Shown one piece after another: positions 15,396 through 37,972 of a DNA stretch of 64,000 bases. The position numbers and the translations under genes are program-made. Position 1 is the first letter of the stretch. Each line of letters opens with the position of its first letter. Under the pieces are notes generated by a model, which saw only the letters and a program-made list of their open reading frames with translations, was not told the origin of the DNA and ran no database searches. This DNA comes from Candidatus Sulfomarinibacteraceae bacterium (GTDB lineage Bacteria; Acidobacteriota; Thermoanaerobaculia; Thermoanaerobaculales; Sulfomarinibacteraceae): positions 1,184,001 to 1,248,000 of the forward strand of contig CAWCLO010000004.1 in NCBI GenBank assembly GCA_963796455.1, in the 5' to 3' direction.

Positions 15396-15492
15396 GTTGC
15401 GTTCTATTAAAACGAGAATAATACGCAGTATAATAATCAATACGTTTCAATGCGCGAAAGTTCAATCAGTGCCAGCCAGAAAGGAAATGGCC

Positions 15493-16683
15493 ATGGAGAA
15501 TTTTGTGAATCGACCTGGTATTCCTCGACAAGACGTGGACAATCCACCCTCCAGACACGATCGGCTAGGCAACAATCGATTCGTCGCCGGCATTGCTGCA
15601 ACGGTCATGCTTCTGGCAACTCTGCCGGCCGGGGCACAGCTTGCCACCAAGGACCGGGGTGAAATGGCAAAACCGGTTCAGGTTCGGCTGAAAAGCATGA
15701 AGGCACCACGAATCGAGATCCGGGCCAAGGACGCCGTCGCACACACCTTCGTGCCTCGAAAGGCACCCACCAACGGGATGTTCGTCGAAAAATCGGCAAC
15801 CTTCGCCGTCACCTACATAGGCTTCTCCCCCGCCGCAGAGGCCGCATTCCAGTACGCGGTCGATATCTGGTCACAGCTCATAACTTCTGCAGTCACCATC
15901 AACATCAATGCGACGTGGGGCCCTCTTGGCGAAGGCGTCCTCGGTTCAGCCGGTGCCAATCAGTATTGGTATTACGGTCCGCAGCAATATATTTTTCCGG
16001 ACGCCCTGGTTGACGCCCTCGTCGGAGCCGACCAGGGGGGCGGGGCCGCAGATATCGTGGCTACGTTCAACAGCAACTTCGGCGATTGGTATCTCGGAAC
16101 CGACGGCAATCCGCCGGCCGGCAAATACGATCTTGTCAGCGTCGTCCTTCACGAAATCGGGCATGGGCTCGGATTCCTGGGTCTGCCCATAGTCGATGAC
16201 GGGGCAGATGACGCGGAATGCAACGGGACGGCAGGTATCGGGTGCTGGTTGGCGGGCCCGACGAACCCGGGTATTTTCGACATATTTACCGAGGACAACC
16301 TCGGTAATGCGCTTTTGAACCAGGGGCTTTTTCCTGACAACTCATTCCAGTTGGGCAACGTTCTTACCGGAATGAACGTCTTCTTTGACGGAACCGGCGC
16401 CAGGGCGGGCAACGGCGGGAACCCTCCGGAGCTCTACGCTCCCGGAACGTGGGACGGCGGATCGAGTTACGCTCACCTCGATGAAGCAGTGTTTCCGGCC
16501 GGGAATCCGAACTCACTGATGACGCCCTTTCTCGCTTCGGCGGAAGCGATCCACAACCCCGGTTTGATCACCCTCGGCATCTTCAGCGACATGGGGTGGA
16601 CCGTCGCCGATCCACCGATCTTCAGCGACGGATTTGAGTCAGGAGGCACCGGCAATTGGACCTCGACGGTCGGCGGATTGTGA
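15493..16683 (+). CDS. Secreted zinc metalloprotease-like protein with C-terminal IFSDGFESG tag
   Basis: Hydrophobic signal-like segment (FVAGIAATVMLLATLPAGA), VVLHEIGHGLGF, GSSYAHLDE and NSLMTP. Ends PPIFSDGFESGGTGNWTSTVGGL. Confidence 0.85.
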   Translation: MENFVNRPGIPRQDVDNPPSRHDRLGNNRFVAGIAATVMLLATLPAGAQLATKDRGEMAKPVQVRLKSMKAPRIEIRAKDAVAHTFVPRKAPTNGMFVEKSATFAVTYIGFSPAAEAAFQYAVDIWSQLITSAVTININATWGPLGEGVLGSAGANQYWYYGPQQYIFPDALVDALVGADQGGGAADIVATFNSNFGDWYLGTDGNPPAGKYDLVSVVLHEIGHGLGFLGLPIVDDGADDAECNGTAGIGCWLAGPTNPGIFDIFTEDNLGNALLNQGLFPDNSFQLGNVLTGMNVFFDGTGARAGNGGNPPELYAPGTWDGGSSYAHLDEAVFPAGNPNSLMTPFLASAEAIHNPGLITLGIFSDMGWTVADPPIFSDGFESGGTGNWTSTVGGL

Positions 16684-16857
16684 TCGGCGGGATCAGGATC
16701 TCGCCCCGACTGAACCGATATAACCACCTCGAATTTTCGAAAGGTCAAAAAATCCAAGGTTTCCCCGTTACCTCAGCGACGATTGCGCGTCCTGAAACCA
16801 GAAGCGGAATTGAATATTTGCGTTCCAACGATTGAACGACTCACAGGAGGCACCCAA

Positions 16858-17562
16858 ATGAAGCAAGTCGCGACCCTCGCAATCCTCGTCCTCGGCCTGG
16901 CGATGCTGCCGGCAGCAGCTGACGCCGCAAACTCGGTTACCGTAACTGAAGCTGCTGCAATGCAAGGTACTTATGGTCTCAACCTACACCTTGACGATCC
17001 CGCATCAACCGCCTCGACACAGGCCTATCTCTGGCTGGCCCGGACAAGGGCTTCAGCAACGAATCGACCCTCAATGGTTCGTTCTTCATCAATCCTCAGA
17101 ACATCACCGCCAGCCAGACCCTGGGCCAGAGCCACTTTCAGCTCATGCGTTTTCTACGAGCACTTCAACGATGCCAGCGGCGTCAAGCTGATTTTCTTCC
17201 TCCATCGCGACGAGGTCAGCGGCAATTGGTTCATCACCGTGTGGCACTACGACGATGTCTTCGGCAACTACGTTTTTACCGGCAACGGTTTCTTCGCTCT
17301 CTACGGGAACGCCCTCTTTGATGAAAACAAGATTGATTGGGAGTGGACCGCCGGCAATCCGGGAACCCTCACCATGTACCGGACCCTCTATGTCGACGGC
17401 GTTCCGGACGCCTCTGGCAAGATCCAGATGTTCACCGCACCGACCCCCGGAATGGCCACGGCCGGCATCAACAACGTGTTTGTCGGAATGCTCAATACTT
17501 TGAGCCACAACAACGGAACCGTGGGTGATCTCCACCTCGACGAGTTCGTTTTCACACGCTAA
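16858..17562 (+). CDS. Secreted beta-rich single-domain protein (putative catcher); two compensating indels at ~17033 and ~17152
   Basis: AGGAGG RBS and signal peptide MKQVATLAILVLGLAMLPAAADA. An alternative frame over ~17033-17152 reads AGPDKGFSNESTLNGSFFINPQNITASQTLGQSHFQLMRF. Ends GDLHLDEFVFTR. Confidence 0.75.
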   Translation: MKQVATLAILVLGLAMLPAAADAANSVTVTEAAAMQGTYGLNLHLDDPASTASTQAYLWLARTRASATNRPSMVRSSSILRTSPPARPWARATFSSCVFYEHFNDASGVKLIFFLHRDEVSGNWFITVWHYDDVFGNYVFTGNGFFALYGNALFDENKIDWEWTAGNPGTLTMYRTLYVDGVPDASGKIQMFTAPTPGMATAGINNVFVGMLNTLSHNNGTVGDLHLDEFVFTR

Positions 17563-17584
17563 GTACGACGATTTCAAACGTCAG

Positions 17585-17618
17585 GAACTCCCATGCAGTG
17601 CATGGGAGTTCTTTTTTT
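17585..17618 (+). terminator. Rho-independent terminator
   Basis: GAACTCCCATGCA-g-TGCATGGGAGTTC followed by TTTTTTT. Confidence 0.88.
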
Positions 17619-17661: not shown

Positions 17662-18564
17662 TCAGGGTGCCCGTTTGCGAGCGCTGAAGATGAGTTGGTG
17701 CGGCCCCAGATAGCCAAGGGGCCTGGACCAGTACGCATGAACGCCCACGTCGCGGAATCCGCAACCCCGCAACGACGACAGCAGATCCCACCCGAAGTGG
17801 TAGAACGCCAGGCATCCTTCACCGGTCAGTGGGTCGCCGTGGAACTCCGGCGGGAGGTGGTGCACGATCTCTCCCTGGGGATCCACCTCCGCTCGGACCA
17901 GAGTATCGGGCCGATCCGGTAGAAAAGGAACCGAGAAATAGAAGAGCCCACCATCTCCGAGCACCCGAGCACATTCGGTAAAAGCCTTGAGATAGCCCGG
18001 TACGTGCTCGAACACGTCAAAGGAAAGCACCGCGTCAAACGATGCGTCGGGAAAACTCAGCTCCGTCACATCCTCATGACGCACGCCGGCCGGGTTGATT
18101 GCGCCGCCCTCCGTTCCGTCTCGAAGAAACTCGCTGCCGACGAGTTTGGGAAATCGTTTTTTCAACTCGGCGTGGAGCGGTGTGACCATCTCGGTCACGA
18201 AAACTCTGGCGTCCGCCTCCAACGCGAACACCTTTTCGAGGATGTGAATGGTGGCTCGCATGCGGTTGTTCAGGCCGCAAGCCTGACAACGCAGATGCTC
18301 CCTCCAGTTCGGCATCCGGATTCCATCGACTTCCCATGAGTATTCTTCGGTCACCAGGAACTCGGATTCTCCGGAACACAGATAACACCATCCCGGCACC
18401 TGAAATTCGAGCCCGTCAGCCATCAGAGATCTTTCCAGAGTTTCTCGTTGTGCGAGAACCGCCGAATCGGATTCGATCTTCGTCCGGTACTCGTCGAAGG
18501 AGCGGAGCGTCATGAGTTCCAGACTGTTTTCCGCCAATCGTCGCTTACGTTGGAAAAACCACAT
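17662..18564 (-). CDS. SAM-dependent methyltransferase domain protein (glycan-locus type)
   Basis: CYLC/CQAC N-terminal region; EDVTELSFPDASFDAVLSFDVFEHV...ECARVLGDGG. Confidence 0.8.
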   Translation of the reverse strand: MWFFQRKRRLAENSLELMTLRSFDEYRTKIESDSAVLAQRETLERSLMADGLEFQVPGWCYLCSGESEFLVTEEYSWEVDGIRMPNWREHLRCQACGLNNRMRATIHILEKVFALEADARVFVTEMVTPLHAELKKRFPKLVGSEFLRDGTEGGAINPAGVRHEDVTELSFPDASFDAVLSFDVFEHVPGYLKAFTECARVLGDGGLFYFSVPFLPDRPDTLVRAEVDPQGEIVHHLPPEFHGDPLTGEGCLAFYHFGWDLLSSLRGCGFRDVGVHAYWSRPLGYLGPHQLIFSARKRAP

Positions 18565-18744
18565 GAAACCAAACTTAGCGCGCCTCGACCCTTCAGTCCA
18601 TGTACGGGCTCGACTGGTACGACGGCCGCCACGGTTTTCTCGAGACGATCAGTTATCATCGCCAGAGAATTCGAAGGTTCGACAGCGTCAACGCCGTCAG
18701 CAAATATCAACCCGCATCGAAACCCTGGAAATCTGGAGCCGAGA

Positions 18745-19500
18745 ATGAAGGAAACGATTCTGAAGATCGGGGAGCGATTCCTTCCCCCGATCATTCAGGC
18801 GAAATTCAGGTACCGGATGACCGAGGACAGAAATCGGTACTACGATGACCTGACCTCGTGCATCATCCACAAGGACCTGAAACCGACCTCCTGTGCTGTT
18901 GATGTCGGATGCCATATCGGTACGATTCTCGACATCATGATCGAGAGCGCTCCACAGGGAACGTTTTTTGCCTTTGAACCGATCCCGATGCTCTTCGAGA
19001 TGTTGCAGGAGAAATACGGGAATGATTCGAGGGTCCGTCTCTCGCCCCTTGCTCTGAGCGATTCCCCGGGTGAAAGAACCTTTCATTGGGTCACCTCGAA
19101 CCCCGGATACAGCGGCTTTCGCGAGCGCCGCTACGATCGGCCCAGCGAAGAGATTTCAATCATCGAGGTCACGACCCAACTCCTCGACACCGTCATCGCA
19201 CCCGACTGCCACATCGACCTGATCAAAATCGACGTCGAAGGGGCGGAACTCGAGGTTCTGCAGGGGGCGCAAAGGATCCTCGCAAAGGACCATCCGGTGG
19301 TCATCTTCGAACACGGGCTCGGTGCGGCCGATTATTATGAGACGACACCGGAGAAGATCTACGAACTGCTGAACGGCAAATGCGGCCTCAATGTCTCCCT
19401 GCTCGATGGATATCTTCGAAACAAGAAGCCCATGACCTGCGAGGAGTTTCGCAAGAGGTTCTCGGTTGACTACGATTACTATTACGTGGCTCACCCATGA
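18745..19500 (+). CDS. FkbM family methyltransferase
   Basis: VDVGCHIG, FAFEPIP and IDLIKIDVEGAELEVLQG. Confidence 0.92.
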   Translation: MKETILKIGERFLPPIIQAKFRYRMTEDRNRYYDDLTSCIIHKDLKPTSCAVDVGCHIGTILDIMIESAPQGTFFAFEPIPMLFEMLQEKYGNDSRVRLSPLALSDSPGERTFHWVTSNPGYSGFRERRYDRPSEEISIIEVTTQLLDTVIAPDCHIDLIKIDVEGAELEVLQGAQRILAKDHPVVIFEHGLGAADYYETTPEKIYELLNGKCGLNVSLLDGYLRNKKPMTCEEFRKRFSVDYDYYYVAHP

Positions 19501-19574
19501 GCCTTGGTGAAGAGAAATTCGAATGGATCAATTGATTTCAAAAAACACCAAAAAGACCGGCCGGAGCGAAATCG

Positions 19575-20333
19575 ATGCCGAGTATTGAAGACAACCTCAA
19601 AACCTGGAATCAGTATTACGACTGGCCTGAAGGCGGGCACGAGTGGTCGAGCTTCTGGGGTGGAACCGATGTCTTGTGGGGAGGTTCCCTGTCTCCTCGA
19701 ATTCGATCATTTCTCCCAACCTCTTCGTTGCTGGAAATTGCACCCGGATTCGGAAGGATCACTTCCTACCTGGTGGAACGATGTGAAAAGTACATTGGTG
19801 TAGATCTGGCTGAGAAATGCGTCACCGAGTGCCGCAGCAAATTCTCGGCTTTCGAACATGCAGCCTTTTTTGTGACCGACGGCTACTCATTGAACGACGT
19901 CCCGGACAAATCGGTCGATTTCGCCTTTTCCTTCGACTCGCTCGTTCATGTCGAGGCGGATGTCATGCAGGCCTACGCACGCGAGCTGGCGAGAACACTC
20001 AAGCCCGGCGGTCGCGCGTTTCTGCATCATTCGAATGTCGGGGCCTTTCTCGACTCGTCGACCGGAGAGATCACCATCAGCAACGACCATTGGCGAGGCA
20101 CAACCATGAGCGCCCAGCTCATGAGGGAATTCGCAGCCTCATCCGGCATCCATTGTGCGGTTCAGGAAATCATCAACTGGGGCGGCACGGATCTCAGCGA
20201 TTGTTTTTCGCTTCTGGTGGCTCAATCGCCATCCGATGCAGACGAAACTCTGGTGGTTGAAAACCCCCGATTCATGGATCAGGCCGTAGCGCTCGGGCAG
20301 GCCGCAGAGGTTTTTGCGCGTGCCTCCAAGTAG
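19575..20333 (+). CDS. Class I SAM-dependent methyltransferase
   Basis: LLEIAPGFGR, VDFAFSFDSLVH and RTLKPGG. Confidence 0.88.
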   Translation: MPSIEDNLKTWNQYYDWPEGGHEWSSFWGGTDVLWGGSLSPRIRSFLPTSSLLEIAPGFGRITSYLVERCEKYIGVDLAEKCVTECRSKFSAFEHAAFFVTDGYSLNDVPDKSVDFAFSFDSLVHVEADVMQAYARELARTLKPGGRAFLHHSNVGAFLDSSTGEITISNDHWRGTTMSAQLMREFAASSGIHCAVQEIINWGGTDLSDCFSLLVAQSPSDADETLVVENPRFMDQAVALGQAAEVFARASK

Positions 20334-23214
20334 TGAAGACTTCGACCGTCTGAAACTGGGATCGTCTGCGGACGATCCAGCCGGCTCCAGGTCGTCCGAT
20401 GTCGATCCGGTTCTCGAGCAGATCTACCGGATCTCCGACGAACGTGATGGTTATTACAGCGAGTGGAAAAACAGCCAGAACCAGATACGGCAGGTTCGAA
20501 CATCCCTGATGTGGCGCGTGGCAAAGGCGTCACTCGCCATCCGCCGCCTTTTTCACCGGCCCGAACCCAAATGGCTCACGGAATCACTCTTCGATGCCAT
20601 CGAGGCAACACCACCGGACGGCAACAAATTCGAAAAGGCCCCAGACCCCGGGGCGGGTCGCTCCACTCTGCGCAGAAAGCCCATCAGAATGGCCGATCGA
20701 GACTCTCATCTCGAACGGGTCACCTTCGAGCGAAACGGGTACTACGGCGAGTGGCGTCACACCGAAAACCGACTCGAGACCATTCACTGCTCGGATCTTT
20801 GGCTTCATTGGGAGCCTTTCCGGAGATTCAAAACCCGTCTGGGTTTTGCCCTCTATCTCCTGAAGGTCATTCGTGGGCTCACCATATCGATCGTCCTTGC
20901 ACCATTCCGTGCCGTCATCCTGGCAGCAAAAAGCATTACCAAACTTCCTGGGGTCGTGTATACGCTCTGCTGGACAGCGGCGACTTCCTTGCGCGCGGTA
21001 TTTCGCGATGGCAGAACCATCGAGGCGAAGGTTCAAGCAGCGGACAACCCGAATCAATCTGAGAGCTTCCGGCCGAGGATTCTCATCGTCTCTCCCTACC
21101 ACCTCCATCCGCCAAACCACGGATCGGGCGTCCGACTGCTCAATCTCGTGCGTGAGCTCGCGTCATCCTGCGACGTTTTTCTACTCGTTTTTTCGCCTAC
21201 CGGAGAAAATCCTGAAGAGCGAAAAGCTCTCGAGGCGCTGTGTCGTCGGGTCGACTACCACCGATGGTTACCCCATCTCAAACCAAATCCGTTTGGCCTC
21301 ACACCGGCCGTGGCCGAGGTCTTCCGATCCGACCGCGTGACCGAAAAAATCCGTGACATCGTGATCGCCAACGATATTGACATCGTGCAACTCGAGCACG
21401 CCGAGTTGGGTCAGTACCGGCACGCCGTCCCGAAGGGCATTCCAGTGGTGTTGAGTGAGATCGACATTGCTTTCAGGACGCACCAGCGCAGGCGCAAGCT
21501 CAGTTTCCACACCCGCTTCGACGAAGCCCAGATCCTCCATACAACTACGATGGATGTCCTGCGTCTTTTCCGCTACGAGGTGCAGAATTGCAAGCACGTT
21601 CAGCAGATCCACACGATGTCGGAAATCGATGCAGCCTATCTGGCCCGCTTCCTGGCAGACGGAGCATCCCGGATACGCGTCATCCCGAATGGGGTCGACA
21701 CCGATGCCTTCCGTCCAACCCAACCCGCGGGACAACGAAACGATGTGCTTTTCGTCGGTAACTTCAACCACCTGCCGAATGTCGATGCGCTCGATTTCTT
21801 GCTCAAGGACGTCTGGCCCTTGCTTCGACTTCGAGTACCCGACGCGCGGCTGAACGTCGTCGGCGCAAGTCCCTCGGACCGAGTCACAGCCTTGACCGAC
21901 TGTCCCGGTGTCACGCTCATCGGCGAAGTGCCCGATCCGAGATTGTATTACCACCGGCACCGCGTCATGGTGGCTCCGATTCGTGCCGGTTCCGGCACCC
22001 GCCTCAAGATTCTCGAGTCCTTTGCGGCCGGCATACCCGTCGTATCGACATCGCTTGGGGCGGAGGGCATCGAGGCGGAGAACGACAAGCATCTCATTCT
22101 CGCCGATCGCGCGATGGACTTTGCAGATGGCATCGAACGAGTCCTGACCGATGACGCACTTTTCGAGTCCTTAGCGGAGGCCGCATCGTCCCTGGTCCGG
22201 CAAAAATACGATTGGCGATTCGTGGCACAACGAATGCACGAGGGCTTCCTCGATCTGATTCCCGAGAAGAAGCGGATTGAGATGGAAGCTGTTCGGAACG
22301 CCAAATCGGAAAAGCAGCAGCAGATCTCCTTGGTAGAACAGGGACCATTGCCCTTGGTGTCGATCGTGATACCGACCTTTCGCGGCGGCGCGGACCTCGA
22401 ACGGTGTCTGTCGTCGATCAGAAAGCAGCAGGTCGATTTTGACTACGAAATCCTGTGCGTCGATTCAGGTTCGGATGCCAGTGACATCGAAATCATGCAA
22501 CGATTTGGCGCGCGGGTCATCGGTATCGCCCAGAAGGAATTCAATCACGGCCTGACCCGGGACTTTGGCGCAACCTGTGCGCGTGGCGAATACCTCGTCT
22601 TGATGAGCCAGGATGCCGTGCCGATCCGGAACGACTGGCTCGACCGGCTGACCGAGCCCCTCCGGGTGGACAGCACCGGGACGTTGGCGGCCGTCCAAGG
22701 GGGCAGCATAGATGTTGTCGATACCGAGAGACGATTCTTCTGGGGCACATCCGGTGAACGTTTCTATTTCACCAGCGAATCACATCGTTGGATCGAACGG
22801 TTCGGCGGTGTCGGTTTTTCGACCACGAATTGTGCGATCCGCCGGATCGTCTGGGATCAATACCGGTTTGGCGAGGCCTCGATTCTCGAAGACAAAAAGT
22901 GGCAACGGCAGATTCTCGATGCAGGTTATGAAATCTGCGCTCTGCCGGAGGTGAAGGTCTTTCACTCTCACGACTACGATCTTCGAACATTACTTCGCCG
23001 TTGCTCGAGCGAGGGCTTCGGCTGGAGGTCTCTCGGTGAACGCTATAGCCTGATCGACGCAGTATCCGACGTGTTTTCACCGTCGGTATGGCGAGAGCTA
23101 CTTTTTGGTTTACAACAGAAATCAGTGCGCACCAGCGCAGAGATCGGTTTTCCGCTGCTGCGGCCCTTTGCTCTGTGGTGGGGAAATCGCTTCTCCCGCC
23201 GGGTTCTGCACTGA
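20314..23214 (+). CDS. Multidomain glycosyltransferase (GT4 plus GT2 rhamnosyltransferase-like)
   Basis: IPNGVDT, FVGNFNHLPN and GSGTRLKILES (GT4); VSIVIPT, VDSGS, FNHGLTR and MSQDA (GT2). Confidence 0.9.
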   Translation: MRVPPSSEDFDRLKLGSSADDPAGSRSSDVDPVLEQIYRISDERDGYYSEWKNSQNQIRQVRTSLMWRVAKASLAIRRLFHRPEPKWLTESLFDAIEATPPDGNKFEKAPDPGAGRSTLRRKPIRMADRDSHLERVTFERNGYYGEWRHTENRLETIHCSDLWLHWEPFRRFKTRLGFALYLLKVIRGLTISIVLAPFRAVILAAKSITKLPGVVYTLCWTAATSLRAVFRDGRTIEAKVQAADNPNQSESFRPRILIVSPYHLHPPNHGSGVRLLNLVRELASSCDVFLLVFSPTGENPEERKALEALCRRVDYHRWLPHLKPNPFGLTPAVAEVFRSDRVTEKIRDIVIANDIDIVQLEHAELGQYRHAVPKGIPVVLSEIDIAFRTHQRRRKLSFHTRFDEAQILHTTTMDVLRLFRYEVQNCKHVQQIHTMSEIDAAYLARFLADGASRIRVIPNGVDTDAFRPTQPAGQRNDVLFVGNFNHLPNVDALDFLLKDVWPLLRLRVPDARLNVVGASPSDRVTALTDCPGVTLIGEVPDPRLYYHRHRVMVAPIRAGSGTRLKILESFAAGIPVVSTSLGAEGIEAENDKHLILADRAMDFADGIERVLTDDALFESLAEAASSLVRQKYDWRFVAQRMHEGFLDLIPEKKRIEMEAVRNAKSEKQQQISLVEQGPLPLVSIVIPTFRGGADLERCLSSIRKQQVDFDYEILCVDSGSDASDIEIMQRFGARVIGIAQKEFNHGLTRDFGATCARGEYLVLMSQDAVPIRNDWLDRLTEPLRVDSTGTLAAVQGGSIDVVDTERRFFWGTSGERFYFTSESHRWIERFGGVGFSTTNCAIRRIVWDQYRFGEASILEDKKWQRQILDAGYEICALPEVKVFHSHDYDLRTLLRRCSSEGFGWRSLGERYSLIDAVSDVFSPSVWRELLFGLQQKSVRTSAEIGFPLLRPFALWWGNRFSRRVLH

Positions 23215-23262
23215 GTTGGGTCGGCTCCCACCGTTGAGCAAAAAGCGTCGGCGCAATCCGGG

Positions 23263-24235
23263 CTAGGTCATGGGCAACCACGCCTTTGCGGTCGTCTCCG
23301 CGGGCCACCGCCAACGATCAACGGTGAAAACGGTTGGAAGTACGGCTCGCATGTATCCGCGCAATGATCGCCGCTGGCAGCGGACGATCAGGTCATCGCC
23401 GTGGTTGCTCTGGCTCGACGCCTCACGGACCCGTTTTGAAATGGTTCGCCGGCCTTTCATCAAACCGATCAAACCGCCGTGGCGCCAGTTGATCACCGCC
23501 TCCGACCTTCCCTGGGCTTCAAAGCGTTTTTTCAGCCATTCCGGCGACAGCCGCTCGATGTTGACCTTGTGGCGCACCCTCGCCTCCGGCACATAGGCAA
23601 TCTCTCCGCCCAATCTTTCGATCCTCAGACACAACTCGATCTCTTCGCAGGACAGCAGATTGTTTCCCTTCCGGCCGAGGTCGGTACAGAAGCCACCGAC
23701 GGAATCGAAGACTTCGCGCCGGAAGGCGACATTCGCGCCGCGCGGATATTCGTCGTAGTGGAGCCTTCGCGCCGAATCACCCAGGTCCCACACCGAAAGA
23801 TACGGCAGAAATCTGCCAAGAAACCAGTCCGGTAATTCACCCTGAAAGACAGGTTCGATCGGGCCCCCAGCGCACTGGATCCCGTCGATGAGGAGCGCAT
23901 CGATGATCGCCTGAAGCCATCCCCGCGCCGGAAAAGCATCATCGTCCAGAAAGGCAATGAAATCACCCTTCGCATTGCGCACGCCGGTATTCCGGGCGGC
24001 AGAAAGACCCAGCTCGGTCTCCTGCAGCACCCGGACCTGGTCGGGGAAATCGTTCTCGACCGAGCGCGCCACATCGAGGGTGTCGTCGGTCGAACAATTG
24101 TCGATGATCAGAAACTCCCACCGCATGCCGCCGGACAGACCTCTGTTGCAGGGCGTCACGACAGCACTCCCCCAGGAGAGACGACCGGTTTCGAGTACAG
24201 ACGACCACCGTCACATCGGGAGAAGATTTCACCAT
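23263..24235 (-). CDS. GT2 glycosyltransferase, frameshifted near 24150
   Basis: N-terminus MVKSSPDVTVVVCTRNR lies in one frame; WEFLIIDNCSTD...GLSAARN...FLDDD...SCEEIELC lies in another. Confidence 0.8.
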
Positions 24236-24390
24236 CGCTCCATATAGTACCGAGTCCTCGGTGTTGCGGCCCCTCAATTCGAAGAAGTTTGGAACGACCG
24301 CTTCTCCGCGAAGGCTATCGAGCCTCTGCGAAACCCCTGCCCTGGTGTATCGTTGTGCCATCACGAAGCCGAACGAGGTGTGAAGACCCA

Positions 24391-26241
24391 TTGGAAATCA
24401 AGAAAATCGCCCGCAGTGCCCTCGAGGCCGTCTCCCGGAGGCTGAAAAACCATCGCTATGCCCGCGACACTGTTGATGGAAAGCCTGCCGGTACCTTTGC
24501 GTATCAATTTGCCGGTGACGGCCCGACGGGACACCTGCCTCTGACCCTTTGGTGCCGAGCCGTTGACTCGAGACTGCCGACTCGAGCCGAGGCCAAAGCC
24601 TGGATCGACCAACAAACCCTGCCCGAACTCGTGATTATCGGGCTGAGCGGCGCGGGAGACGAATTGTGGCGTGTCTCGCGACACTCCGCACCAAAGCACG
24701 CAGACAGTTCCTTCTGGTTTGCAGCGCCCGGGAAGCTCCCCGATCTCCTTCCCAACCACCTCGAATCATCTTTCCTCGTCGCCGCGGCTGAGGACGTCGA
24801 TGCCGTACTTCTCTTCGAAGGCTCCGGCCCATACCCCGAACTCCCAGCCCACGTCCCGGGAGTCGAGTGCGCATCACCCTATCGCGAGCGGGCACTCTAC
24901 CGCTCGGATGCCTATGCCTACCATGCAGCCACCGACGAAGTCCGTCCGGTGAAAGAGCAACGAATCATCAAGCTCATCGATCCCCGCGACGCCGAAGCGA
25001 CCGAAGCGACCGCGCGGCTCTTCAATCGATTCCGCCGGGGCCCCTATCTCAGTACGACGGAATTGACTGAAAAGTTGATCGTGCCCGTCCGCGATGCCGG
25101 CTTGGTCGAGCGAGACGCATCGCAAAACCACCTCCCGGCGGTTCTGATCATGGTGCCCTTTCTGGCCCGCGGCGGCGTCGAGCAGACCCTCTACGCCACC
25201 ATGGGCGCGCTGTCGGATCGTTTTGATTTTTCCATCGCCACCCTGGCGCCGCATCGAGAGGCCCTCGGCGACCGGCGCGACGATTTCCGGACCATCACCG
25301 ACCGCATCTATTGTCTCGGCGATCTCGTCCATCCGGATGTCATGATCGGGATCATCGAATCCATACTCGATTCAACCGGTGCCGAGATCATTTACAACGC
25401 CAACGGCACGACGCTTTTTTACGACTTCGCGGCGAGACTGAAAGAAAACCGGCCATCACTCCGAATCATCGATCACCTCTATGACCACGAGGTGGCCTAT
25501 ATCGATCGCTACAACGACGATCTGCTGGCCGCGGTCGACGTATGCGTGGCGGAGAACCATTTGATTGCCGACGAGCTCACCCGGCGCAGGTCCTGGCCCG
25601 CCGAACGCGTGCCCGTGATCTGGCCCTGTGGGCGACCGCAGGACGAGCTTCCCGAGCCCGCCGACCGGCCCAGAATCCGGACTGCGCTGAGGGGCGAGCT
25701 CGATCTCGCCGAGAGTGACGTGGTCGTGATCACGGCAGCGAGAATGAACCACCAGAAACGGCCCCTCGACCTGGTTCGATTGGCCGAACGCGTCCACGAT
25801 CTCGAGCACCTTCAATTCCTGGTTGTCGGCGGCGGCGATCTCGAGATGGAGATGGATCGGGAAATCGCCGGCAATCCTGAACTGCATATTCGCCGCCTGC
25901 CGTTTCGACCCGACATCCCCGAACTCATCCTCGCTGCCGATGCCGGCTGTCTGGTGTCCGAATTCGAGGGGCTGCCGGTCTTCATGCTCGAATGTCTTCA
26001 ACTCGGCAGGCCCTTCCTGGGTACCCGAGTCGGAGATCTGGGGAGAGTCCTGGACCAGACCGGCGCCGGGATCGTGGTGGATCAACCCGGCGACCTCGAC
26101 GCTCTGGAAGCGGCGGTCCGGCGCTTGGCTGACAGCAGTTTTCGCGCTGAACTCGCGCAAAAGGCCGTCGAGGCCGCCCCGAGGTTTTCCGTCGAAAGAT
26201 GCGCAGACGCCTACTCGGCAGCCTTTCTCGGAGACGATTGA
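24391..26241 (+). CDS. GT4 glycosyltransferase with unknown N-terminal domain
   Basis: PFLARGGVE, ARMNHQKRP and SEFEGLPVFMLE. Start approximate (TTG). Confidence 0.85.
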   Translation: MEIKKIARSALEAVSRRLKNHRYARDTVDGKPAGTFAYQFAGDGPTGHLPLTLWCRAVDSRLPTRAEAKAWIDQQTLPELVIIGLSGAGDELWRVSRHSAPKHADSSFWFAAPGKLPDLLPNHLESSFLVAAAEDVDAVLLFEGSGPYPELPAHVPGVECASPYRERALYRSDAYAYHAATDEVRPVKEQRIIKLIDPRDAEATEATARLFNRFRRGPYLSTTELTEKLIVPVRDAGLVERDASQNHLPAVLIMVPFLARGGVEQTLYATMGALSDRFDFSIATLAPHREALGDRRDDFRTITDRIYCLGDLVHPDVMIGIIESILDSTGAEIIYNANGTTLFYDFAARLKENRPSLRIIDHLYDHEVAYIDRYNDDLLAAVDVCVAENHLIADELTRRRSWPAERVPVIWPCGRPQDELPEPADRPRIRTALRGELDLAESDVVVITAARMNHQKRPLDLVRLAERVHDLEHLQFLVVGGGDLEMEMDREIAGNPELHIRRLPFRPDIPELILAADAGCLVSEFEGLPVFMLECLQLGRPFLGTRVGDLGRVLDQTGAGIVVDQPGDLDALEAAVRRLADSSFRAELAQKAVEAAPRFSVERCADAYSAAFLGDD

Positions 26242-26242
26242 G

Positions 26243-28074
26243 TTGTCCGGACCGTCGTTCCACCACCGTGCCCAGGCCCTTTTCTGGGAACACAACCGGC
26301 CGCTTCGAGCGTTGGCCCGCCGGATACGCAGAACGCTCTCCCTGATCTTGTATCGACTCCGAGGCCGAGTCGTCGATGCGCAACCTCCCCGGGTGGTGGC
26401 CAAACCCAGCCCCAACCTGGACCAAACCATCCCCCATCCGGCCATCGCTGTAGAAATCGGGAATAGTGTTTCACGGCAGGGAGTGGAGGCCTTTCTCGAC
26501 GGCCAGACTGAGCGTTCGGTTGTTCAGGTATCAGAATCGGCGTCCGACCCCAGCTTTGTCATCACGGTCGGAACGGGATGCAGTCTTCTGCCGCCGACCC
26601 ATCTCGAATCGCTTCTGATGGCGGCCTGCGCAGAGGACCTCGATTGGACGATCGGAGGATGGGCAGGACCGGCCCCGGGGCGATTCGGGCCCACCGGCCG
26701 GACCGCTCGCGATGACCGCGTCGATCCGGCCTCGTATGTCCTCGTCAGACTCCCGCACGACGGTCGCTGCATCCGGCGCAAGCTCACCGGACGATCGGTT
26801 CCTCACATCTGTGACATCGCGCACCTCGAGCAACCGGTGCCGACCGCCGAACCGTTTTCGATCCGATCCGGAGCTCACCGCCTTCACCACCGCATCTCCT
26901 CTGGCAGCATTACAGAGACCCCGGTTTACGACATTGACAGCGTCATGGCCCATGTTCCACCGGTGGATGGACCAAGAACTGTCCTGTTCCTCCTCCCCTA
27001 TCTTGCGGTAGGTGGTGCGGAGGCTCTGCTTCAGACCCTCGTCCGAGGCTTTGGTGACCGCTATCGCGTGATCATCGCGACCACCGACCCCCATCTGCAG
27101 GCCCTCGGTCAAACCGTTGACCGTTTTCGGGAACTGTCGCCACAGGTGTACACCCTGGGCGACTGGTTGCCGAAGGAGGCGATTCCGTCAGCCATCCGCC
27201 ATCTGTTGCGGCGGTGGCAAGTTGAGAGCCTGGTGTGCTGGAACGGCAATGTCTTTTTTTATGATCATGTGGACTCGATCAAGCGCCATTTCCCGTCAAT
27301 CCGGACCATCAACCAGCTCTACAACCATCGTGGCGGTTGGATCGAACACTATTGCCCCACCATCGTGAAGGCCACCGATCTCCACATCGCCGTCAACAGT
27401 CCGATTGCCAGAGCACTGGCGGAGGAACGGGCGGTTCCCGAACCGTCGATCAATACCATCTTCCACGGTGTGGAAATCCCCGATCTGGCGGACAACGAGG
27501 AGCGTGACCGGAAGAAGGCTCGACTTCGTCTCGAACTGGGTCTCCCGAATGACGCGCTCGTGGTTGGATCGTTCATCCGCATGCATGCACAAAAACGGCC
27601 TCTCGACATCATCCGGGTGGCACGAAAAATGGTGGACGAAGGCATTCATTTTCTGCTCGTCGGTGGCGGGTCACTGGACCGGGAGGTGGACAAAGAAATC
27701 CAGATCAACGGCCCACCGAATCTCACCCGCTTGCCGATGAGGGAGGACGCCCGGGATCTCTACGACGCGATCGATATCTGCCTGATGACGTCTTCGTTCG
27801 AGGGGCTTCCGGTGTTCCTGCTCGACGGTCTCGCCCGGGCGCTCCCTTGTGTCGCTCCGGGAGTCGGAGACATCCCCCTTCTCCTCGGCAAGGGCGGTGG
27901 CGTCGTCACCGAGAGACCGGGTGACATCGACGCCCTGGTCGCCGGAATCCGGAAGCTCAAAGACCCTGGACTGCGCCGCGAAGAGGGCTCCGCGGGCGCT
28001 CCACGGTGATCTCCAACTACGGCAACGACAAATTTGTGTCGAACTACGAAACTGCTATCTTTCCTGCACCATGA
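26243..28074 (+). CDS. GT4 glycosyltransferase, paralogue of the upstream gene; frameshift near 27985
   Basis: PYLAVGGAE, RMHAQKRP and SSFEGLPVFLLD. A typical GT4 C-terminal helix (GLRGRSTVISNYGNDKFVSNYETAIF) continues in another frame to TGA 28074, which overlaps the next ATG. Confidence 0.8.
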
Positions 28075-29041
28075 ATGCACCAACGGTCAGCGTGCTCGTA
28101 CCCTCGTACAACCACGATCGCTTTATCGGCGAAGCAATCGCCAGCGCCCTCGCCACGGATCTGACAGCGTCGAAATCGTGATCGTGGACGACGGCTCGAC
28201 AGACGATCAACCAGGGACGTGCTCCAGCGCCTTTTCCCAGGATGACCGGGTTCGAGTCTTCGATCAGGAGAACCGGGGCGCCCACGCGGCACTCAACCGA
28301 TGCCTCGAACTCGCACGGGGTGAGTACCTCTTCATTCTCAACTCGGACGATGTCTATCCGCCGCAGCGGATTCCCCGTCTGGTCGCAGGAGCTGCAGGAA
28401 CACCCGGAAGCGGCGCTCGCCACGTCCTGGATCCAGATCATCGACGACGATGGCAAAGAGCTCGGGATCAAGGAGGCTGGCACAATCTGCCGCCGTGGGA
28501 GCCGCCCACGGAGGGCCCCTATCTTTCCGCCATTGGGGACCCGAAGCTTGCCATGCTCGAGACCAATTTTGTCTCAACGACCTCGAATCTCGCCTTCCGC
28601 CGTTCCCTGATCGAGAATCAGGGTCTCAGGTTTCAAGCCTCTGCGCTACGCCCACGACTGGGATTTCATCCTATCGGCCTGCCATCACGGAGATCTTCGG
28701 GTGGTCACGGACCCGTTGATCTCTACCGCGTCCATTCGACGAACACGATCAAGGAAGGTGCCGACTCCGGAGTCGGGCCGATGCGTTTCGAGATTCAGTG
28801 GGTGGTCGCCCGCCACGCCTATCGGCTGCTCAAATCAGCGGCCGGACCAAGGGACACGATTGACGACCTCATTCAACTCGCCTGGAACTCGATGCCGAGC
28901 TTCGGTTGTGACGGAATCCTCGACCGCCTCCTCGTGCTCCGGGGTGAAACGGACACTCCGCCGGCTACCTATGACGCGCTCATCGATCCCGACCATCCCC
29001 TGCACCGATCCGCGGTTGTCACCCTCGCCGCTGCGGATTAG
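28071..29041 (+). pseudogene. GT2 glycosyltransferase with multiple frameshifts (pseudogene or sequencing errors)
   Basis: MNAPTVSVLVPSYNH, VEIVIVDDGSTD, ELQEHPEAALATSW, LRYAHDWDFIL and LYRVHSTNTI are spread over all three frames. Confidence 0.75.
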
Positions 29042-29080
29042 TCGGCCACCAATTCGTCGAAACTCCGCAGAGTCCTGGCG

Positions 29081-30226
29081 TCAACGGTGAGTTCCTGCCG
29101 CTTCAATTCTTCCAGAAAAGCACTGCAGCCCGTTGCCCACGAGATTGGTGAACCAGAAGGCGCATAGACGTCTGGCCGCCTTGTCGTTCTCACTGGCCGA
29201 AGCCATCCCCTTGAGGTATCCATATTGAAAGAGCTTGTGCAGCAGCGGATCAACGACCGAGGTCGCAGGCAAATCAAATTCGGCTGCGAGTTCCAGAACG
29301 CCCTCTTCCAAGGCCTCGAGCTTGTCTTCAACCGCGAGAACCCGCCGGCGCCTCGCCCCAAAGATGAGCTTTTCACGAATCCGGGAGCGCCGGATCTGCT
29401 GCGCTCCGATGTCGCGTCGGGTTTTCGGCCATTTCTCGATCAACACCGAGCCCATCTTGCCGCACGACATCTGGCGGGCGAAAAATGACGGCGCATCATA
29501 GGCGTGGTGGTGCCAGGCGCGGGCTGAGGCCCGATACACGATTCGCATCCCCCGACGCCGTAGCCGATACGAAAACTCGGCATCTTCGAATGCCGCGGCG
29601 GGGAAATCCTTGCTGAAACCGGTGAACTCCTCTTCGAGAAGCTTTCTGGAAGCCGAGACATTGCTTGTGTAAAAATGGCGATAGTCGTACTCGTCGCCAT
29701 CGGTCATGTAGTGAAAGCTGAACTGCTGGGCGCCGACACCGTCGACATGACGCATTGTGGACGTGAGTTCGAGATCAGGAGACCAGGAGATGTTGCCCAA
29801 AACGGCCCAGCGATCACTGATCATCCCTTTCCGGGCATCGAGATGGCTCTTGAGCAGATCCGGTGACGGCTCGATATCGTCACCGGTATAAAGGACCCAC
29901 TCCCCAGTAGCGGCCGCCAGGCCGTAGTTGCGCGCCACCGCGGGCCCCTGATTCTCCTGGCGGAGAACGACCAGCGAATACCTCGTGGGCTTTGTGGCGG
30001 CGAGCAGTTCGGATGTGCGATCACCAGATCCGTCGTCCACGACCACGATCTCAAAGGGGAGATCGTTGGGGGTCTGTCGTTCCCACGCCCGCAGCATCTT
30101 CTCCAATGTCGCGGCACGATTCCATGTGGGGATGATGACCGAAAACTTCGGAAGGGTGCTTTCACCATGCACTGAGTTGTGACTCCGATCACGCGTCGTG
30201 GTAACTGTCGCCGATTTCGTGTCCAT
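29081..30226 (-). CDS. GT2 glycosyltransferase
   Basis: FSVIIPTWNR, VVDDGS, GPAVARN, TGDD and FEDAEFSYR. Confidence 0.9.
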   Translation of the reverse strand: MDTKSATVTTTRDRSHNSVHGESTLPKFSVIIPTWNRAATLEKMLRAWERQTPNDLPFEIVVVDDGSGDRTSELLAATKPTRYSLVVLRQENQGPAVARNYGLAAATGEWVLYTGDDIEPSPDLLKSHLDARKGMISDRWAVLGNISWSPDLELTSTMRHVDGVGAQQFSFHYMTDGDEYDYRHFYTSNVSASRKLLEEEFTGFSKDFPAAAFEDAEFSYRLRRRGMRIVYRASARAWHHHAYDAPSFFARQMSCGKMGSVLIEKWPKTRRDIGAQQIRRSRIREKLIFGARRRRVLAVEDKLEALEEGVLELAAEFDLPATSVVDPLLHKLFQYGYLKGMASASENDKAARRLCAFWFTNLVGNGLQCFSGRIEAAGTHR

Positions 30227-30331
30227 CCTAACCCCAACCGCACTCCGGCACCAGGGTTTGCCGGATACTCTGTTTTCGACAAATGAGCGGAAGTCCTGAT
30301 ATGATAGTTCTGAGGGCGCTAGGAATTCAAT

Positions 30332-32809
30332 ATGTCAAAAATTGCCTATATTTCAAAAAATCCGCAGGTCGTCGCGTTCGCCGTCACCATACTGCTGGCG
30401 GCCGCCTCGATTGCCGATTGTGAGACCGTCATCACCGTTCCTGGTGACTACTCGACATTGAGCGCAGCGGTTGCCGCTGTGCCCCATGGTGGAGTCATCG
30501 AAATAGCTGCCGGCAGTTACTCCGGTGGGTTCAGCTACAACAACCTCGGCAAGGCCTTCACGATCAGAGCTGTTTCCCCGAACACGGTTTTTCTGGATGG
30601 CGGCGGCACCCAACCGGTTTTCCGCCTGCAGAACACGACGGTCTCGGCCGGTGGTCCCATCGTCTTTAAAAACCTCGTCTTTCGAAACGGAAGATCGACA
30701 ACCAGCGGCGTCGGCGGTGGCGTGACCTTGAGCCGGGCCGACGCCACCTTCATCGATTGTTCGTTTCTCGACAACACCTCAAACGCGATCACCGGCGGCG
30801 GAGGCGTCGCGGTGGTGACGGATTCCGCGGCCTATTTTGTGCGCTGCCTGTGGCAGGACAACGTAGCGACTCACGAGGGCGCCGGGCTCAGGGTCAACGA
30901 CGACGCGCTGGCTGTGGTGCATGATTCGAGGTTCATCGACAACTCGGCCAACCCCCCGAATCACCGCAACACGGCGGCCGGGGGCGGCGTTCACGTCGGG
31001 AACAGCATGTTTCGCGTGAGCGACAGTCGATTCGAGGGCAACACGGCGGGCTATGTGGGTGGCGGAATCTACGCCATCGGCAACTGGCAGGAGCCGGTCA
31101 CGACACCTCGATCCGTGGTCGTGGTGGCAAACTGCACGCTTGAAGACAATGCGGCAATTGCAGACGGTTCCGTTGACACGCCGACCCCACCCGAAGCCGG
31201 CGGGATCCATGTGGAGGATCAAAGCGCGGTCGCAATCTATGGTTCGCGCTTCGTTTTCAACACGGCCGAGAGGGGCGGAGCGGTCAACTCTTATCGCGCC
31301 GGAATCATCATTGAAGATTCGATCTTCCGCGGCAACTGGGTCGACGGAAGCAGCCCCTCAACCGGTTTTGGCGGCGCTATCGCGGTCACCTCAAGCGACA
31401 CCACGATCGATGGTTCGACCAATCGGCCCAATGGCACGCTGACAGTCTCCAACACCTTGATCCACGGCCGTTTTGATCCGGTGGGTGCTGTCGCCCAGGC
31501 CGGCGGCGGCGTCTACGTCGCGGGTGATGTCAACCGCGAATATGGTTTTGGAGGTGTCTCCAAGCTCGGTCCGACCTCGGTCAACCGCTCACCCGTGGTT
31601 CTCGATAATGTGGTCTTCTATGAGTGTGACGTCAACGATCCGCTAACCGCCAACAAGGGCCTCGGCGGCGGCATGAGCTTCGAACTCGGGCAGTTAACCG
31701 GCTCCGACCTCCTCGTCATTGACTCGGATGCAACCGGCGTCGAGAGCACCGGCGGGGCACTACGATTCGTCATTGAGTCTGCAGGTACCGTTGCAACGAG
31801 CACATTTGCGGCGAACTCTGCCGTTCGTTTCGGGGGCGCAGTCTTTGGTCAGGGAAGCGATCTCGATTTCAACCAATGCACTTTTCTCGAGAACGAAATC
31901 AGCCCGGGAACAAGTGAGACCGTGGGAGTGTCTTACGGTGCAGCGTTGTTCCTCGGTCCGATCGTGGGATATGCCGGTGTCGATATGCCGATGGATGGTG
32001 CGGTGGAGAACAGTATATTCGCCGATAACATAGGTCTTCCGATTTTCGACGACGATCGTTCGCCGAGCCCCATCAACGATATGCGCTACAACGGCAACGA
32101 TATCCACTCCAGTACTTTCGGAACCAGTGTCTATATCGATTCCGTGGTCAGCGGCGCAAAGAGCGTCTCCCAACTCAACTCCCTGGTGGTCACCCGCGGC
32201 GGCGGAACCAGCACGACCAAGTCCCAGGTCGACAATAACTCGCTCGGGACCTCGCCGGCGACGGCGACTCTCCTGGCCGTGCCGTCGAAGATCCTCACGC
32301 GCGGGGCGGCCGGGGATCCTGCCGGCAGTACCGACTCGTTCCTCGCCTGGGCTTGGAGTGGAGCATCCGCAACCCTGAACTCTTCACCTCTCGGATCGAC
32401 CACCGGCATCGCCGGCGCGTCGGCCGGAACCTCCACGTTGAACGCCGACGGCGAATTGGCCCAGGCCCAGGTCGTCGCGGCCGCGGCCCCCGCCGTCAGC
32501 CTGAGCGCGGTACCGATCGCCATCAGCAGCGGCCAGTCGGCCTCCCTGCAGTGGAACCTCACCGCCGGTACCTATCTGGACGTGGATATCGATGGCGGTC
32601 TCCGCTTGTCGCCGGGATCCAAGGGAAGCTCCGGTTCGGTTTCGGTCTCCCCCACCGTCACGACCACCTACAGGATCATCGCCACAACCGAAGAAGGAGG
32701 CGCGATCGCCGAAGCCACAGTATGGGTCGACGAGACACCGCCTTCGATCTTCAGCGATGGATTCGAGACCGGCAACACCTCGACCTGGTCAGCTGCCGTT
32801 GGTTCGTGA
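30332..32809 (+). CDS. Secreted right-handed beta-helix (Pmp-like GGA/FxxN repeats) protein with C-terminal IFSDGFETG tag
   Basis: Signal peptide, VPGDYSTL start, and repeated FxxN...GGG/GGA motifs. Ends PPSIFSDGFETGNTSTWSAAVGS. Confidence 0.85.
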   Translation: MSKIAYISKNPQVVAFAVTILLAAASIADCETVITVPGDYSTLSAAVAAVPHGGVIEIAAGSYSGGFSYNNLGKAFTIRAVSPNTVFLDGGGTQPVFRLQNTTVSAGGPIVFKNLVFRNGRSTTSGVGGGVTLSRADATFIDCSFLDNTSNAITGGGGVAVVTDSAAYFVRCLWQDNVATHEGAGLRVNDDALAVVHDSRFIDNSANPPNHRNTAAGGGVHVGNSMFRVSDSRFEGNTAGYVGGGIYAIGNWQEPVTTPRSVVVVANCTLEDNAAIADGSVDTPTPPEAGGIHVEDQSAVAIYGSRFVFNTAERGGAVNSYRAGIIIEDSIFRGNWVDGSSPSTGFGGAIAVTSSDTTIDGSTNRPNGTLTVSNTLIHGRFDPVGAVAQAGGGVYVAGDVNREYGFGGVSKLGPTSVNRSPVVLDNVVFYECDVNDPLTANKGLGGGMSFELGQLTGSDLLVIDSDATGVESTGGALRFVIESAGTVATSTFAANSAVRFGGAVFGQGSDLDFNQCTFLENEISPGTSETVGVSYGAALFLGPIVGYAGVDMPMDGAVENSIFADNIGLPIFDDDRSPSPINDMRYNGNDIHSSTFGTSVYIDSVVSGAKSVSQLNSLVVTRGGGTSTTKSQVDNNSLGTSPATATLLAVPSKILTRGAAGDPAGSTDSFLAWAWSGASATLNSSPLGSTTGIAGASAGTSTLNADGELAQAQVVAAAAPAVSLSAVPIAISSGQSASLQWNLTAGTYLDVDIDGGLRLSPGSKGSSGSVSVSPTVTTTYRIIATTEEGGAIAEATVWVDETPPSIFSDGFETGNTSTWSAAVGS

Positions 32810-33685
32810 GGGGCGACGCGCCGAGATCAATCCTCGGGCGAAGGCCGTTCTGCACTGAAGATCCCAGAGATCCGACCGGCAACCACGTCTCCACGCGGTG
32901 CGCCATACTGACCGAATGGCAAGTGCTGGCGCAAGTGCGAGGGGTTTGAGGACAAGAGCGCCAACAAGATCCGGGTGCTGCCGAATGGCTCGCCTCGCCC
33001 ACCAGCCCGCAAGACGCTGCCGCGTCAAAAACGGCTCGATGTTTTCATAGTGGTGGTGGTGCAGAACCTTCGCCTCACCGTCGAAATAAACCCTCCTGGA
33101 CCGCCGTTTCCATCGCCATAACATCTCGGTGTCTTCCAGGCAGGCATCCGTGTAGGCCTCGTCAAAGGGCTCATCCAAAAACCACGATCTCGGAGCTGAA
33201 AGATTTGAACTGACGACCGAAGACCAGGGCACCAACGATCCGGTTTCGAGTCCCTTGAACCAAAACTGTGGTCCCTCAGGTGCCAGAAACCTCATCACCT
33301 CGGTGACGCCGGACTCCGAATCCCAATCGATCATCCCCTGAGTGCCGCCCTCCGCTTCGCCGGAAAGGTGGCGAGCCAGACAATCCGGCTCCGGAATCAT
33401 GTCATCGCCGAGAAGCAGTATGCGATCAGAAACGGCCTCTCGGATGCCGGCATTGCGGGCCCGGGCCGGCCCGCCGTGCTCGAGGGCTATCGATTTCAAC
33501 TCATAGTTGCTGGGTTTCGTCGCCTGGAGCAAGCGTGGCGTGTCATCGGTGGATCCGTCGTCGACGACAACCACCGAAAAGAAAACATCCACTCCACGTT
33601 GCTTATCCAGCGCCTCGAGTGTCGATCGCAGCACCCGGCACCTGTTCCGGGTCGGTATGACGACCGTCAGGGCTTCGTCGGCCAT
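32789..33685 (-). CDS. GT2 glycosyltransferase
   Basis: VVIPTRNR, VVDDGSTD, GPARARN, LGDD and LEDTEM. Confidence 0.88.
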   Translation of the reverse strand: MADEALTVVIPTRNRCRVLRSTLEALDKQRGVDVFFSVVVVDDGSTDDTPRLLQATKPSNYELKSIALEHGGPARARNAGIREAVSDRILLLGDDMIPEPDCLARHLSGEAEGGTQGMIDWDSESGVTEVMRFLAPEGPQFWFKGLETGSLVPWSSVVSSNLSAPRSWFLDEPFDEAYTDACLEDTEMLWRWKRRSRRVYFDGEAKVLHHHHYENIEPFLTRQRLAGWWARRAIRQHPDLVGALVLKPLALAPALAIRSVWRTAWRRGCRSDLWDLQCRTAFARGLISARRPSRTNGS

Positions 33686-33686
33686 A

Positions 33687-34478: not shown

Positions 34479-34496
34479 GGACTCCCGGATCCTCCG

Positions 34497-35333: not shown

Positions 35334-35390
35334 AAAATATTAACACGCTGAAGACTTCGACAAGGTTCAATCACCCGAACCGCTGCTACC

Positions 35391-36371: not shown

Positions 36372-36592
36372 GCAGCCCGCCCCACCCTTTTCATGTTCGC
36401 CGATCTCGATCCAGAACCAAACTCACTCAAAACCCGCGATCCTCGCCTACGATCTGCCGCGACCTCCTATCCGGAATGGCTACGGGCGGGTTATTCTTGT
36501 ATGGGGGGCGCGTGTTGTCTCCGGCAATTCCGGGTGACAATTCGATCAAGACAGGCGCTCGAGAGGTTTGACTACATGATGGTTGACGGACC

Positions 36593-37951: not shown

Positions 37952-37972
37952 GCGACTGGAAGGTAGACCCCT

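Follow-up and report, generated by a model that had tools for sequence, protein, structure and literature searches.

Why should a secreted metalloprotease end in a short peptide that looks like the opening strand of a jelly-roll domain, and what is encoded by the secreted beta-sandwich gene directly downstream of it? Two genes of Candidatus Sulfomarinibacteraceae bacterium (Acidobacteriota) raise this question. They lie in the window analysed here, a 64,000-nucleotide stretch of contig CAWCLO010000004.1. A sequence-only reading of this DNA had proposed that one extracellular domain is split, with cargo proteins donating a strand in trans to a stand-alone acceptor that lacks it. The tailed genes of the window and the elements of the first one are:

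15407..15434 (+), match to a sigma-70-like promoter 5' of gene 1 (10/12, a consensus match only)
15493..16683 (+), gene 1, secreted zinc metalloprotease (from the open reading frame and the zinc motif; exact start codon uncertain)
16150..16173 (+), HEIGHGLG zinc-binding motif of gene 1 (from the sequence)
16618..16680 (+), C-terminal tag IFSDGFESGGTGNWTSTVGGL of gene 1 (from the tail alignment and the register with Cip1)
30332..32809 (+), second tailed cargo, a beta-helix protein with the C-terminal end IFSDGFETGNTSTWSAAVGS

The translation of gene 1 runs to ...PPIFSDGFESGGTGNWTSTVGGL followed by a stop codon, so the tail is present where it had been placed, and the sequence quoted for it earlier was five residues short. 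The product scored 76.9 bits against NF038122 (metallo_LGF), just below the cut-off of 80. Upstream of the protease, at 13410-15336 of the window, lie genes for an ECF sigma factor, a zf-HC2 anti-sigma factor without the tail and a LiaF-like membrane protein; a terminator closes this group.

We measured the occurrence of the tag across the genome using the motif [IVL]FxD[GS]FE[ST]GxxxxW, as found in the protease tail. In a six-frame scan, 38 of 51 matches fell within the final 30 residues of an open reading frame (ORF), compared to 32% expected, although the 38 probably include one N-terminal copy whose frame is broken. The reversed motif gave two matches in a control scan of the same genome, and the clustering at ORF ends is therefore not due to chance. 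In 35 aligned tails, the two Phe residues were invariant and the Asp, Glu, Gly, and Trp were each at least 90% conserved. The 34 carriers scanned were unrelated extracellular proteins, judged from the best five Pfam matches per protein: beta-helices, FG-GAP and other propellers, M6 and M12 proteases, and proteins with PKD, Calx-beta, LamG, CAP, or DUF11 domains. Eight of the 34 had no Pfam match. The protease is one cargo among about 38 and no dedicated partner of the acceptor.

The tail did not resemble known sorting signals. NCBIfam models, including the curated CTERM models, matched none of 35 tails at E up to 5. Neither a transmembrane helix nor a basic cluster was found after the motif; the tails are acidic and end no more than 30 residues further on, and the best 17-residue hydropathy within the last 60 residues was below 1.6 in 34 of 37 scored tailed proteins. 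A tail profile gave only weak matches to PDB sequences (E 0.16-1.4), two of them to the N-termini of carbohydrate-binding-type domains. Signal peptides were called in 28/38 tailed proteins and 96/200 controls by a loose heuristic to which we give little weight. In four places of the same genome (G000:C1:187478, C4:658521, C4:1136574, and C7:284629) the motif stood directly behind a signal peptide and not at the C-terminus, and a few proteins carried it at an internal position. Several tailed ORFs were pieces of frameshifted genes, which fits indel errors in the assembly.

Gene 2 has been described as a signal peptide plus a single domain on the same strand, and it reads so:

16858..17562 (+), acceptor gene 2 (from the ATG), signal peptide and one domain
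16858..16926 (+), acceptor signal peptide (predicted AxA cleavage before Ala24)
16927..17562 (+), strand-less ConA-like jelly-roll acceptor, or catcher (from profile comparison and predicted fold)
17029..17155 (+), stretch between two compensating single-base indels (from frame comparison, relatives, and one contig)
17539..17541 (+), Asp228 of the acceptor, putative Ca2+ ligand and counterpart of Cip1 Asp206
17583..17613 (+), intrinsic terminator-like hairpin 3' of the acceptor gene

The gene is open in one frame and garbled over about 17029-17155, where the other frame gives ...ESTLNGSFFINPQNI... Three intact relatives of 234 aa carry this segment in frame, and an independent contig from another run (one contig, depth 2.7) has an extra base behind 17030. 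Because of these relatives and the extra base, both indels probably arose in assembly; no contig covered the second. One acceptor relative, P0006, belongs to Thermoanaerobaculales, which puts the acceptor family in Thermoanaerobaculia. The source genome encodes a second strand-less paralog (G000:C4:342582-343256, L072:6586-7260), which lies outside any glycan cluster, and an intact copy of the domain ends a 3740-aa protein. There was no Pfam match for P0003, P0006, P0064, P0080, or P0165 at E up to 0.1, no match of the acceptor profile among PDB sequences, no NCBIfam match above cut-off for 17 acceptors, intact domains and neighbours, and no relative of P0003 in the metagenome contigs scanned. 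The Atlas neighbours of the acceptor were hypothetical proteins.

The split itself was assessed with a nine-sequence profile that recovered 2774 representatives. For the tally we used domain matches covering the N-terminal part in the fetched proteins and left out those starting after profile position 45. The tag motif stood upstream of the domain in 0/79 short stand-alone proteins versus 164/203 copies inside long proteins; several of the 39 long-protein misses, among those listed, were variant or truncated motifs. The pattern that the sequence-only reading had given for intact domains agrees with this alignment, and the acceptor aligns to IFxDGFE-initiated domains, as anticipated, from the third element onward. 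The proposal of a split domain is supported: the element missing from the acceptor is kept by its intact relatives and carried by the donors. It is the N-terminal segment that would be donated, as proposed, but not as one plain strand; it consists of a short initial strand followed by a Ca2+ loop and a segment with the Trp. Two strand-less acceptors, L037 (G125) and L248 (G015), had an insertion of about 100 residues behind the first strands, and each adjoins a tailed gene. Strand-less domains that retain the Trp were embedded in longer proteins at L282 (G343) and L280 (G385), and these are possible scaffold-type acceptors.

Structure prediction gave the acceptor a recognisable fold. The AlphaFold model of P0003 (pLDDT 95) is a ConA-like jelly roll. 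Its closest match was the PL20 glucuronan lyase 2ZZJ (VIA Z 14.4, with 181 aligned at rmsd 3.0; 23-234 of the model on 20-228 of the chain), and Cip1 (3ZYP) gave VIA Z 12.7 (model 22-234 on 23-212). The model of an intact copy aligned from residue 1 of 2ZZJ and 3ZYP, with Z of 18.7 and 16.2; its residues 1-5 had pLDDT below 50, with no strand called, and were covered by only 16 of 56 alignment rows. Alignment A8 was left out of folding because the query was split over two repeats. Sequence identity to the Cip1 and PL20 structures was 8-14%. At the level of these models, the beta-sandwich named in the sequence-only reading is confirmed as a Cip1/PL20-like jelly roll.

The Cip1 structure suggests what the tag might contribute. 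In Cip1 (PMC3764139), strand 1 is Ile2-Asp4, followed by a loop Phe6-Trp15, and the Ca2+ ligands are Asp5, Glu7, Ser37, Asn40, and Asp206. Judged from this register, the tag IFSDGFESGGTGNWTSTVGGL corresponds to strand 1 of the jelly roll, the Ca2+ loop and the segment with the Trp. It would then give the first two Cip1-type ligands and the acceptor the others, making a shared site. Asp228 was invariant in 89/89 strand-less domains, which have no Glu partner of their own. The stand-alone chain lacks the full ligand set: the N-terminal Asp/Glu loop was missing in 79/79 stand-alone proteins, and the last-strand Asp was present.

We estimated co-occurrence of tail and acceptor in 201 genomes of the class. 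Tail-rich genomes (32) had 4-112 matches of the tag-coding pattern, terminal and internal copies taken together, and the secreted strand-less form was judged by eye. A strand-less gene was found in 27/32 tail-rich versus 2/169 tail-poor genomes, a tally that, like those for Xanthomonadales below, overstates independence because the genomes are kin. The two tail-poor genomes were G034, with one true tail, and G001, in which no tail was found; three further ones had intact or long-protein copies only, and G175 was counted among the 169. In the five other tail-rich genomes (7-61 matches), three profiles found no acceptor; these assemblies comprise 180-740 contigs and are 91-95% complete. All 13 tail-rich genomes assembled in at most 30 contigs have the strand-less gene. 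The pair occurred in nine families, and in family f13 (29 genomes) the two genomes with tails were the two with acceptors. A tailed gene lay within the fetched flank at 5/28 acidobacterial acceptor loci.

The expected co-occurrence was seen in a second phylum. A stop-terminated short tail was detected in Dokdonella, Rudaea, Marinicella, Ahniella, Aquimonas, and their relatives, and the first search of Gammaproteobacteria gave one strong acceptor match each in 4/5 short-tail genomes. Among 201 Xanthomonadales genomes, the acceptor profile matched 85/126 of those with at least four tail matches and, after a wider profile was applied to the 41 misses, 104/126; in 22/126 the acceptor was not found with the wider profile either. 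It matched 9/20 genomes with 1-3 tail matches and 7/55 with none, and six of those seven have 22-66 IFxDRFE variant tails. In G287 the acceptor was present and a tail was not found. Re-searching 39 of 48 gammaproteobacterial genomes with neither trait yielded no acceptor, and the three checked for a variant tail had none. The sequence was read at 43 gammaproteobacterial loci; the remaining loci are profile matches only. There was no real case of a tailed gene in the acceptor flank among 54 loci.

The boundary between tag and acceptor differed between the two phyla. Gammaproteobacterial tails (IFxDGFE-stop) ended at most eight residues from FE, without Trp, in 17 of 19 C-terminal motifs that were not stop-selected. 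Their acceptors start with Cys...Trp-Ser and no GFE at 42/43 loci, 18 residues ahead of the acidobacterial profile start, and a further invariant Cys stands at position 34. Acidobacterial tails continue through Gly-x4-Trp, and their acceptors start behind the Trp segment. Between Acidobacteriota and Xanthomonadales, a change in tail length goes with a matching shift of the split point, in agreement with the split first proposed from one locus, and no other finding argues as strongly for binding in trans.

Two further arrangements were observed in Gammaproteobacteria. Some proteins have two tandem tags at the C-terminus or in adjacent genes (L089/L090, L118, G201:C1:1516676-1516725). In Dokdonella, a small secreted protein ending LPVTLQ[GS]FSV[EG] is encoded directly 3' of the acceptor (L305:10301-10777, +; L306:8786-9289, -); its codon bias is high, it has no Pfam match, and its gene is followed by a DUF1573/HYDIN Ig-repeat gene. 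It is possibly a second terminal-strand system.

Next, we considered how the acceptor might be held on the envelope. Strand-less domains were fused to SLH modules in G126, G141, and G045, and the acceptor-fused SLH is the sole SLH match of G141; that of G074 has an SLH-like extension. Dockerin-like repeats occurred on the strand-less domain in G034 and at 12/13 further gammaproteobacterial loci, with one of three tested above the Pfam cut-off. Most acceptors have no anchor module, and no recognisable anchor was found on the plain acceptor of this genome. Within its own family, SLH was detected in 2/18 tail-rich genomes, both with anchor-fused acceptors, versus 9/11 tail-poor ones; there, tails and SLH-anchored cargo are almost mutually exclusive. 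Across the class, the numbers were 5/32 versus 58/169.

In this genome, the acceptor gene stands at the head of a 21-kb glycan cluster:

17662..39157 (no strand assigned), surface-glycan cluster with three methyltransferases, 10 glycosyltransferase ORFs, and an ABC-2 exporter pair

By inspection, the acceptor gene of Marinicella W31 lies among sulfotransferase- and glycosyltransferase-like genes. A sulfatase was found near the acceptor at 7/28 loci versus 1/150 control windows; the remaining crude neighbourhood motifs were uninformative. Codon bias was ribosomal-like in 4/5 gammaproteobacterial acceptors, mild in the acceptor of this genome (90th-94th percentile), and unremarkable in 4/5 other acidobacterial acceptors and G300. 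An S-layer role of the acceptor is possible; the S-layer protein NpdA is given as 52 kDa in PMC10765051. In G070 (L008:1839-2384, -) and G093 (L007:2192-2719, -), an ECF sigma gene is followed by a gene for a CxxC anti-sigma-like protein with a terminal tag-like motif and then by the acceptor gene. These proteins are possible sensors of free acceptor.

Genomics strongly supports the donor-strand interpretation and predicts binding. An extracellular Cip1/PL20-like jelly-roll domain has been divided between genes: tens of unrelated enzymes and adhesins exported by Sec have its first roughly 8-20 residues as their C-terminal tag, and the remainder is a separate secreted acceptor, usually single-copy. 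After export, the tag would dock on the acceptor and restore the missing sandwich edge, and the Ca2+ site would be completed by the tag Glu and a backbone oxygen together with loop oxygens and the last-strand Asp of the acceptor. Fused SLH or dockerin-like modules may hold the acceptor on the envelope in some lineages; in others it would probably be an abundant surface protein tied to glycan from the neighbouring cluster. With the acceptor held in this way, tagged cargo would be displayed without a sortase or membrane anchor. That the tag binds the acceptor in trans, lastingly or transiently, we consider highly probable. A many-cargo, one-acceptor, Ca2+-clamped docking system for lasting envelope anchoring is likely. 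The widest version is tentative and somewhat harder to credit: a genome-wide tag-and-catcher in which one abundant, glycan-associated surface protein of incomplete fold would catch up to about 140 enzymes and adhesins via an 8-20 residue Ca2+-clamped tail, with split points that arose differently in Acidobacteriota and Gammaproteobacteria. It would take the place of SLH anchoring, and in some lineages an anti-sigma factor with a tail would titrate it and so sense free acceptor.

Binding might also be transient, the acceptor acting as a periplasmic escort or export adaptor that passes cargo to a secretion machine, in which case the tag would be a secretion signal and no anchor. PorV serves type IX cargo as a comparable adaptor. 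A single small acceptor for 30-140 cargos, the scarcity of anchor modules, and the anti-sigma-like proteins of G070 and G093, whose tag-like ends upstream of the acceptor suggest a periplasmic meeting, all speak for an escort. However, the SLH and dockerin fusions, the near exclusion with SLH-anchored cargo and the glycan-cluster location suit tethering better, and no secretion-machine gene was found beside the acceptor in the loci read. We regard this explanation as unlikely.

Less probable still, and doubtful on present evidence, is the absence of any binding. The tails would then be relics of a lost C-terminal jelly roll or a Ca2+-binding cap for another factor. The strand-less protein, for its part, would bind glycan or belong to the surface layer independently of the tails and share only ancestry and lineage with them. 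The strand-less domain, with its pLDDT of 95, does not look crippled, which counts against the docking explanation; there are exceptions both ways (tails without acceptor, acceptor without tails), and truncation is conceivable since intact C-terminal copies exist, one of them on the 3740-aa protein. Relics, however, would lose the two Phe, the Glu, and the Trp, and the tails of unrelated genes keep them. Independence also leaves unexplained why, in either phylum, the acceptor has retained precisely what is missing from the tail, as well as the invariant Asp228, and the moving split point disfavours it. Finally, a dedicated protease-inhibitor or protease-chaperone pair, as the shared strand, the 174-base gap and the single terminator behind gene 2 might suggest, is scarcely credible and was rejected as an operon pair, since 37 other ORFs share the tail and adjacency is not conserved at the acidobacterial or gammaproteobacterial loci.

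The division into tail and strand-less protein is real and widespread, with the tag and its probable reader identified, and apparently undescribed; no published description of tail or acceptor was found in a search that mostly did not extend to subscription journals, so absence from print is not established. If the docking reading is true, this would be a new class of protein-sorting signal, with signal and reader both named, in which fold completion does the reading in place of a sortase, membrane anchor, or secretion pore. It would account for the unannotated tail that thousands of secreted proteins have in Thermoanaerobaculia and in the genera Marinicella, Dokdonella, Rudaea, and Ahniella, which can be cultured. 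For reversible coupling, an 8-residue tag switched by Ca2+ and its 200-residue partner would be of practical use as well.

Several known systems share parts of this design. LPXTG, PEP-CTERM, GlyGly-CTERM, and the T9SS CTD are C-terminal sorting signals, and the likeness lies in a common C-terminal motif on unrelated exported proteins that co-occurs with a single-copy reader gene. Here, in contrast, there is no transmembrane helix, basic cluster, or NCBIfam match, and the reader is a fragment of a non-enzymatic fold. The lack of a helix or basic residues and the 0/35 NCBIfam result rule out a tripartite sortase-like signal. A T9SS C-terminal domain, folded and about 70-80 residues long, was not among the best five Pfam matches per protein for 34 cargos, and the tail has 8-22 residues.

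Cohesin-dockerin and SLH anchoring likewise place many enzymes, through a small tag, on a common envelope-held partner with Ca2+ involved. A dockerin, however, is itself a folded domain of 60 residues, and the cohesin it binds is complete, whereas an 8-20 residue peptide would here complete the fold of its partner. Some acceptors carry SLH or dockerin-like modules of their own. In chaperone-usher donor-strand complementation and exchange, an incomplete beta-sandwich is finished by a strand of another chain, much as predicted here. There, the Ig fold lacks its last strand, the donor is N-terminal, and every subunit is both donor and acceptor, so that the chain polymerises; donors and acceptor here are separate classes. 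An acceptor of that type was ruled out, as the protein is a jelly roll that lacks the N-terminal segment and has the last strand.

The nearest mechanism found is the PilC/PilY1-PilK strand addition, in which, according to PMC13533445, a large secreted protein has a short peptide at its C-terminus that provides, in trans, a strand present in cis in the acceptor's relatives. One adhesin and one pilin fold are involved there, compared to tens to more than 100 unrelated cargos on a ConA-like jelly roll here, where the N-terminal segment is missing, a shared Ca2+ is predicted, and there is no pilin motif. The Sec-type signal peptide and jelly-roll fold rule out a type IV minor pilin. In fold, the closest relatives are Cip1 (3ZYP), PL20 2ZZJ, and the PF14099 neighbourhood, in which a Ca2+ "grip" holds the N-terminus, a loop, and the last strand in the way predicted here; the Cip1 and PL20 jelly rolls are single chains, whereas here the domain is divided over two genes.
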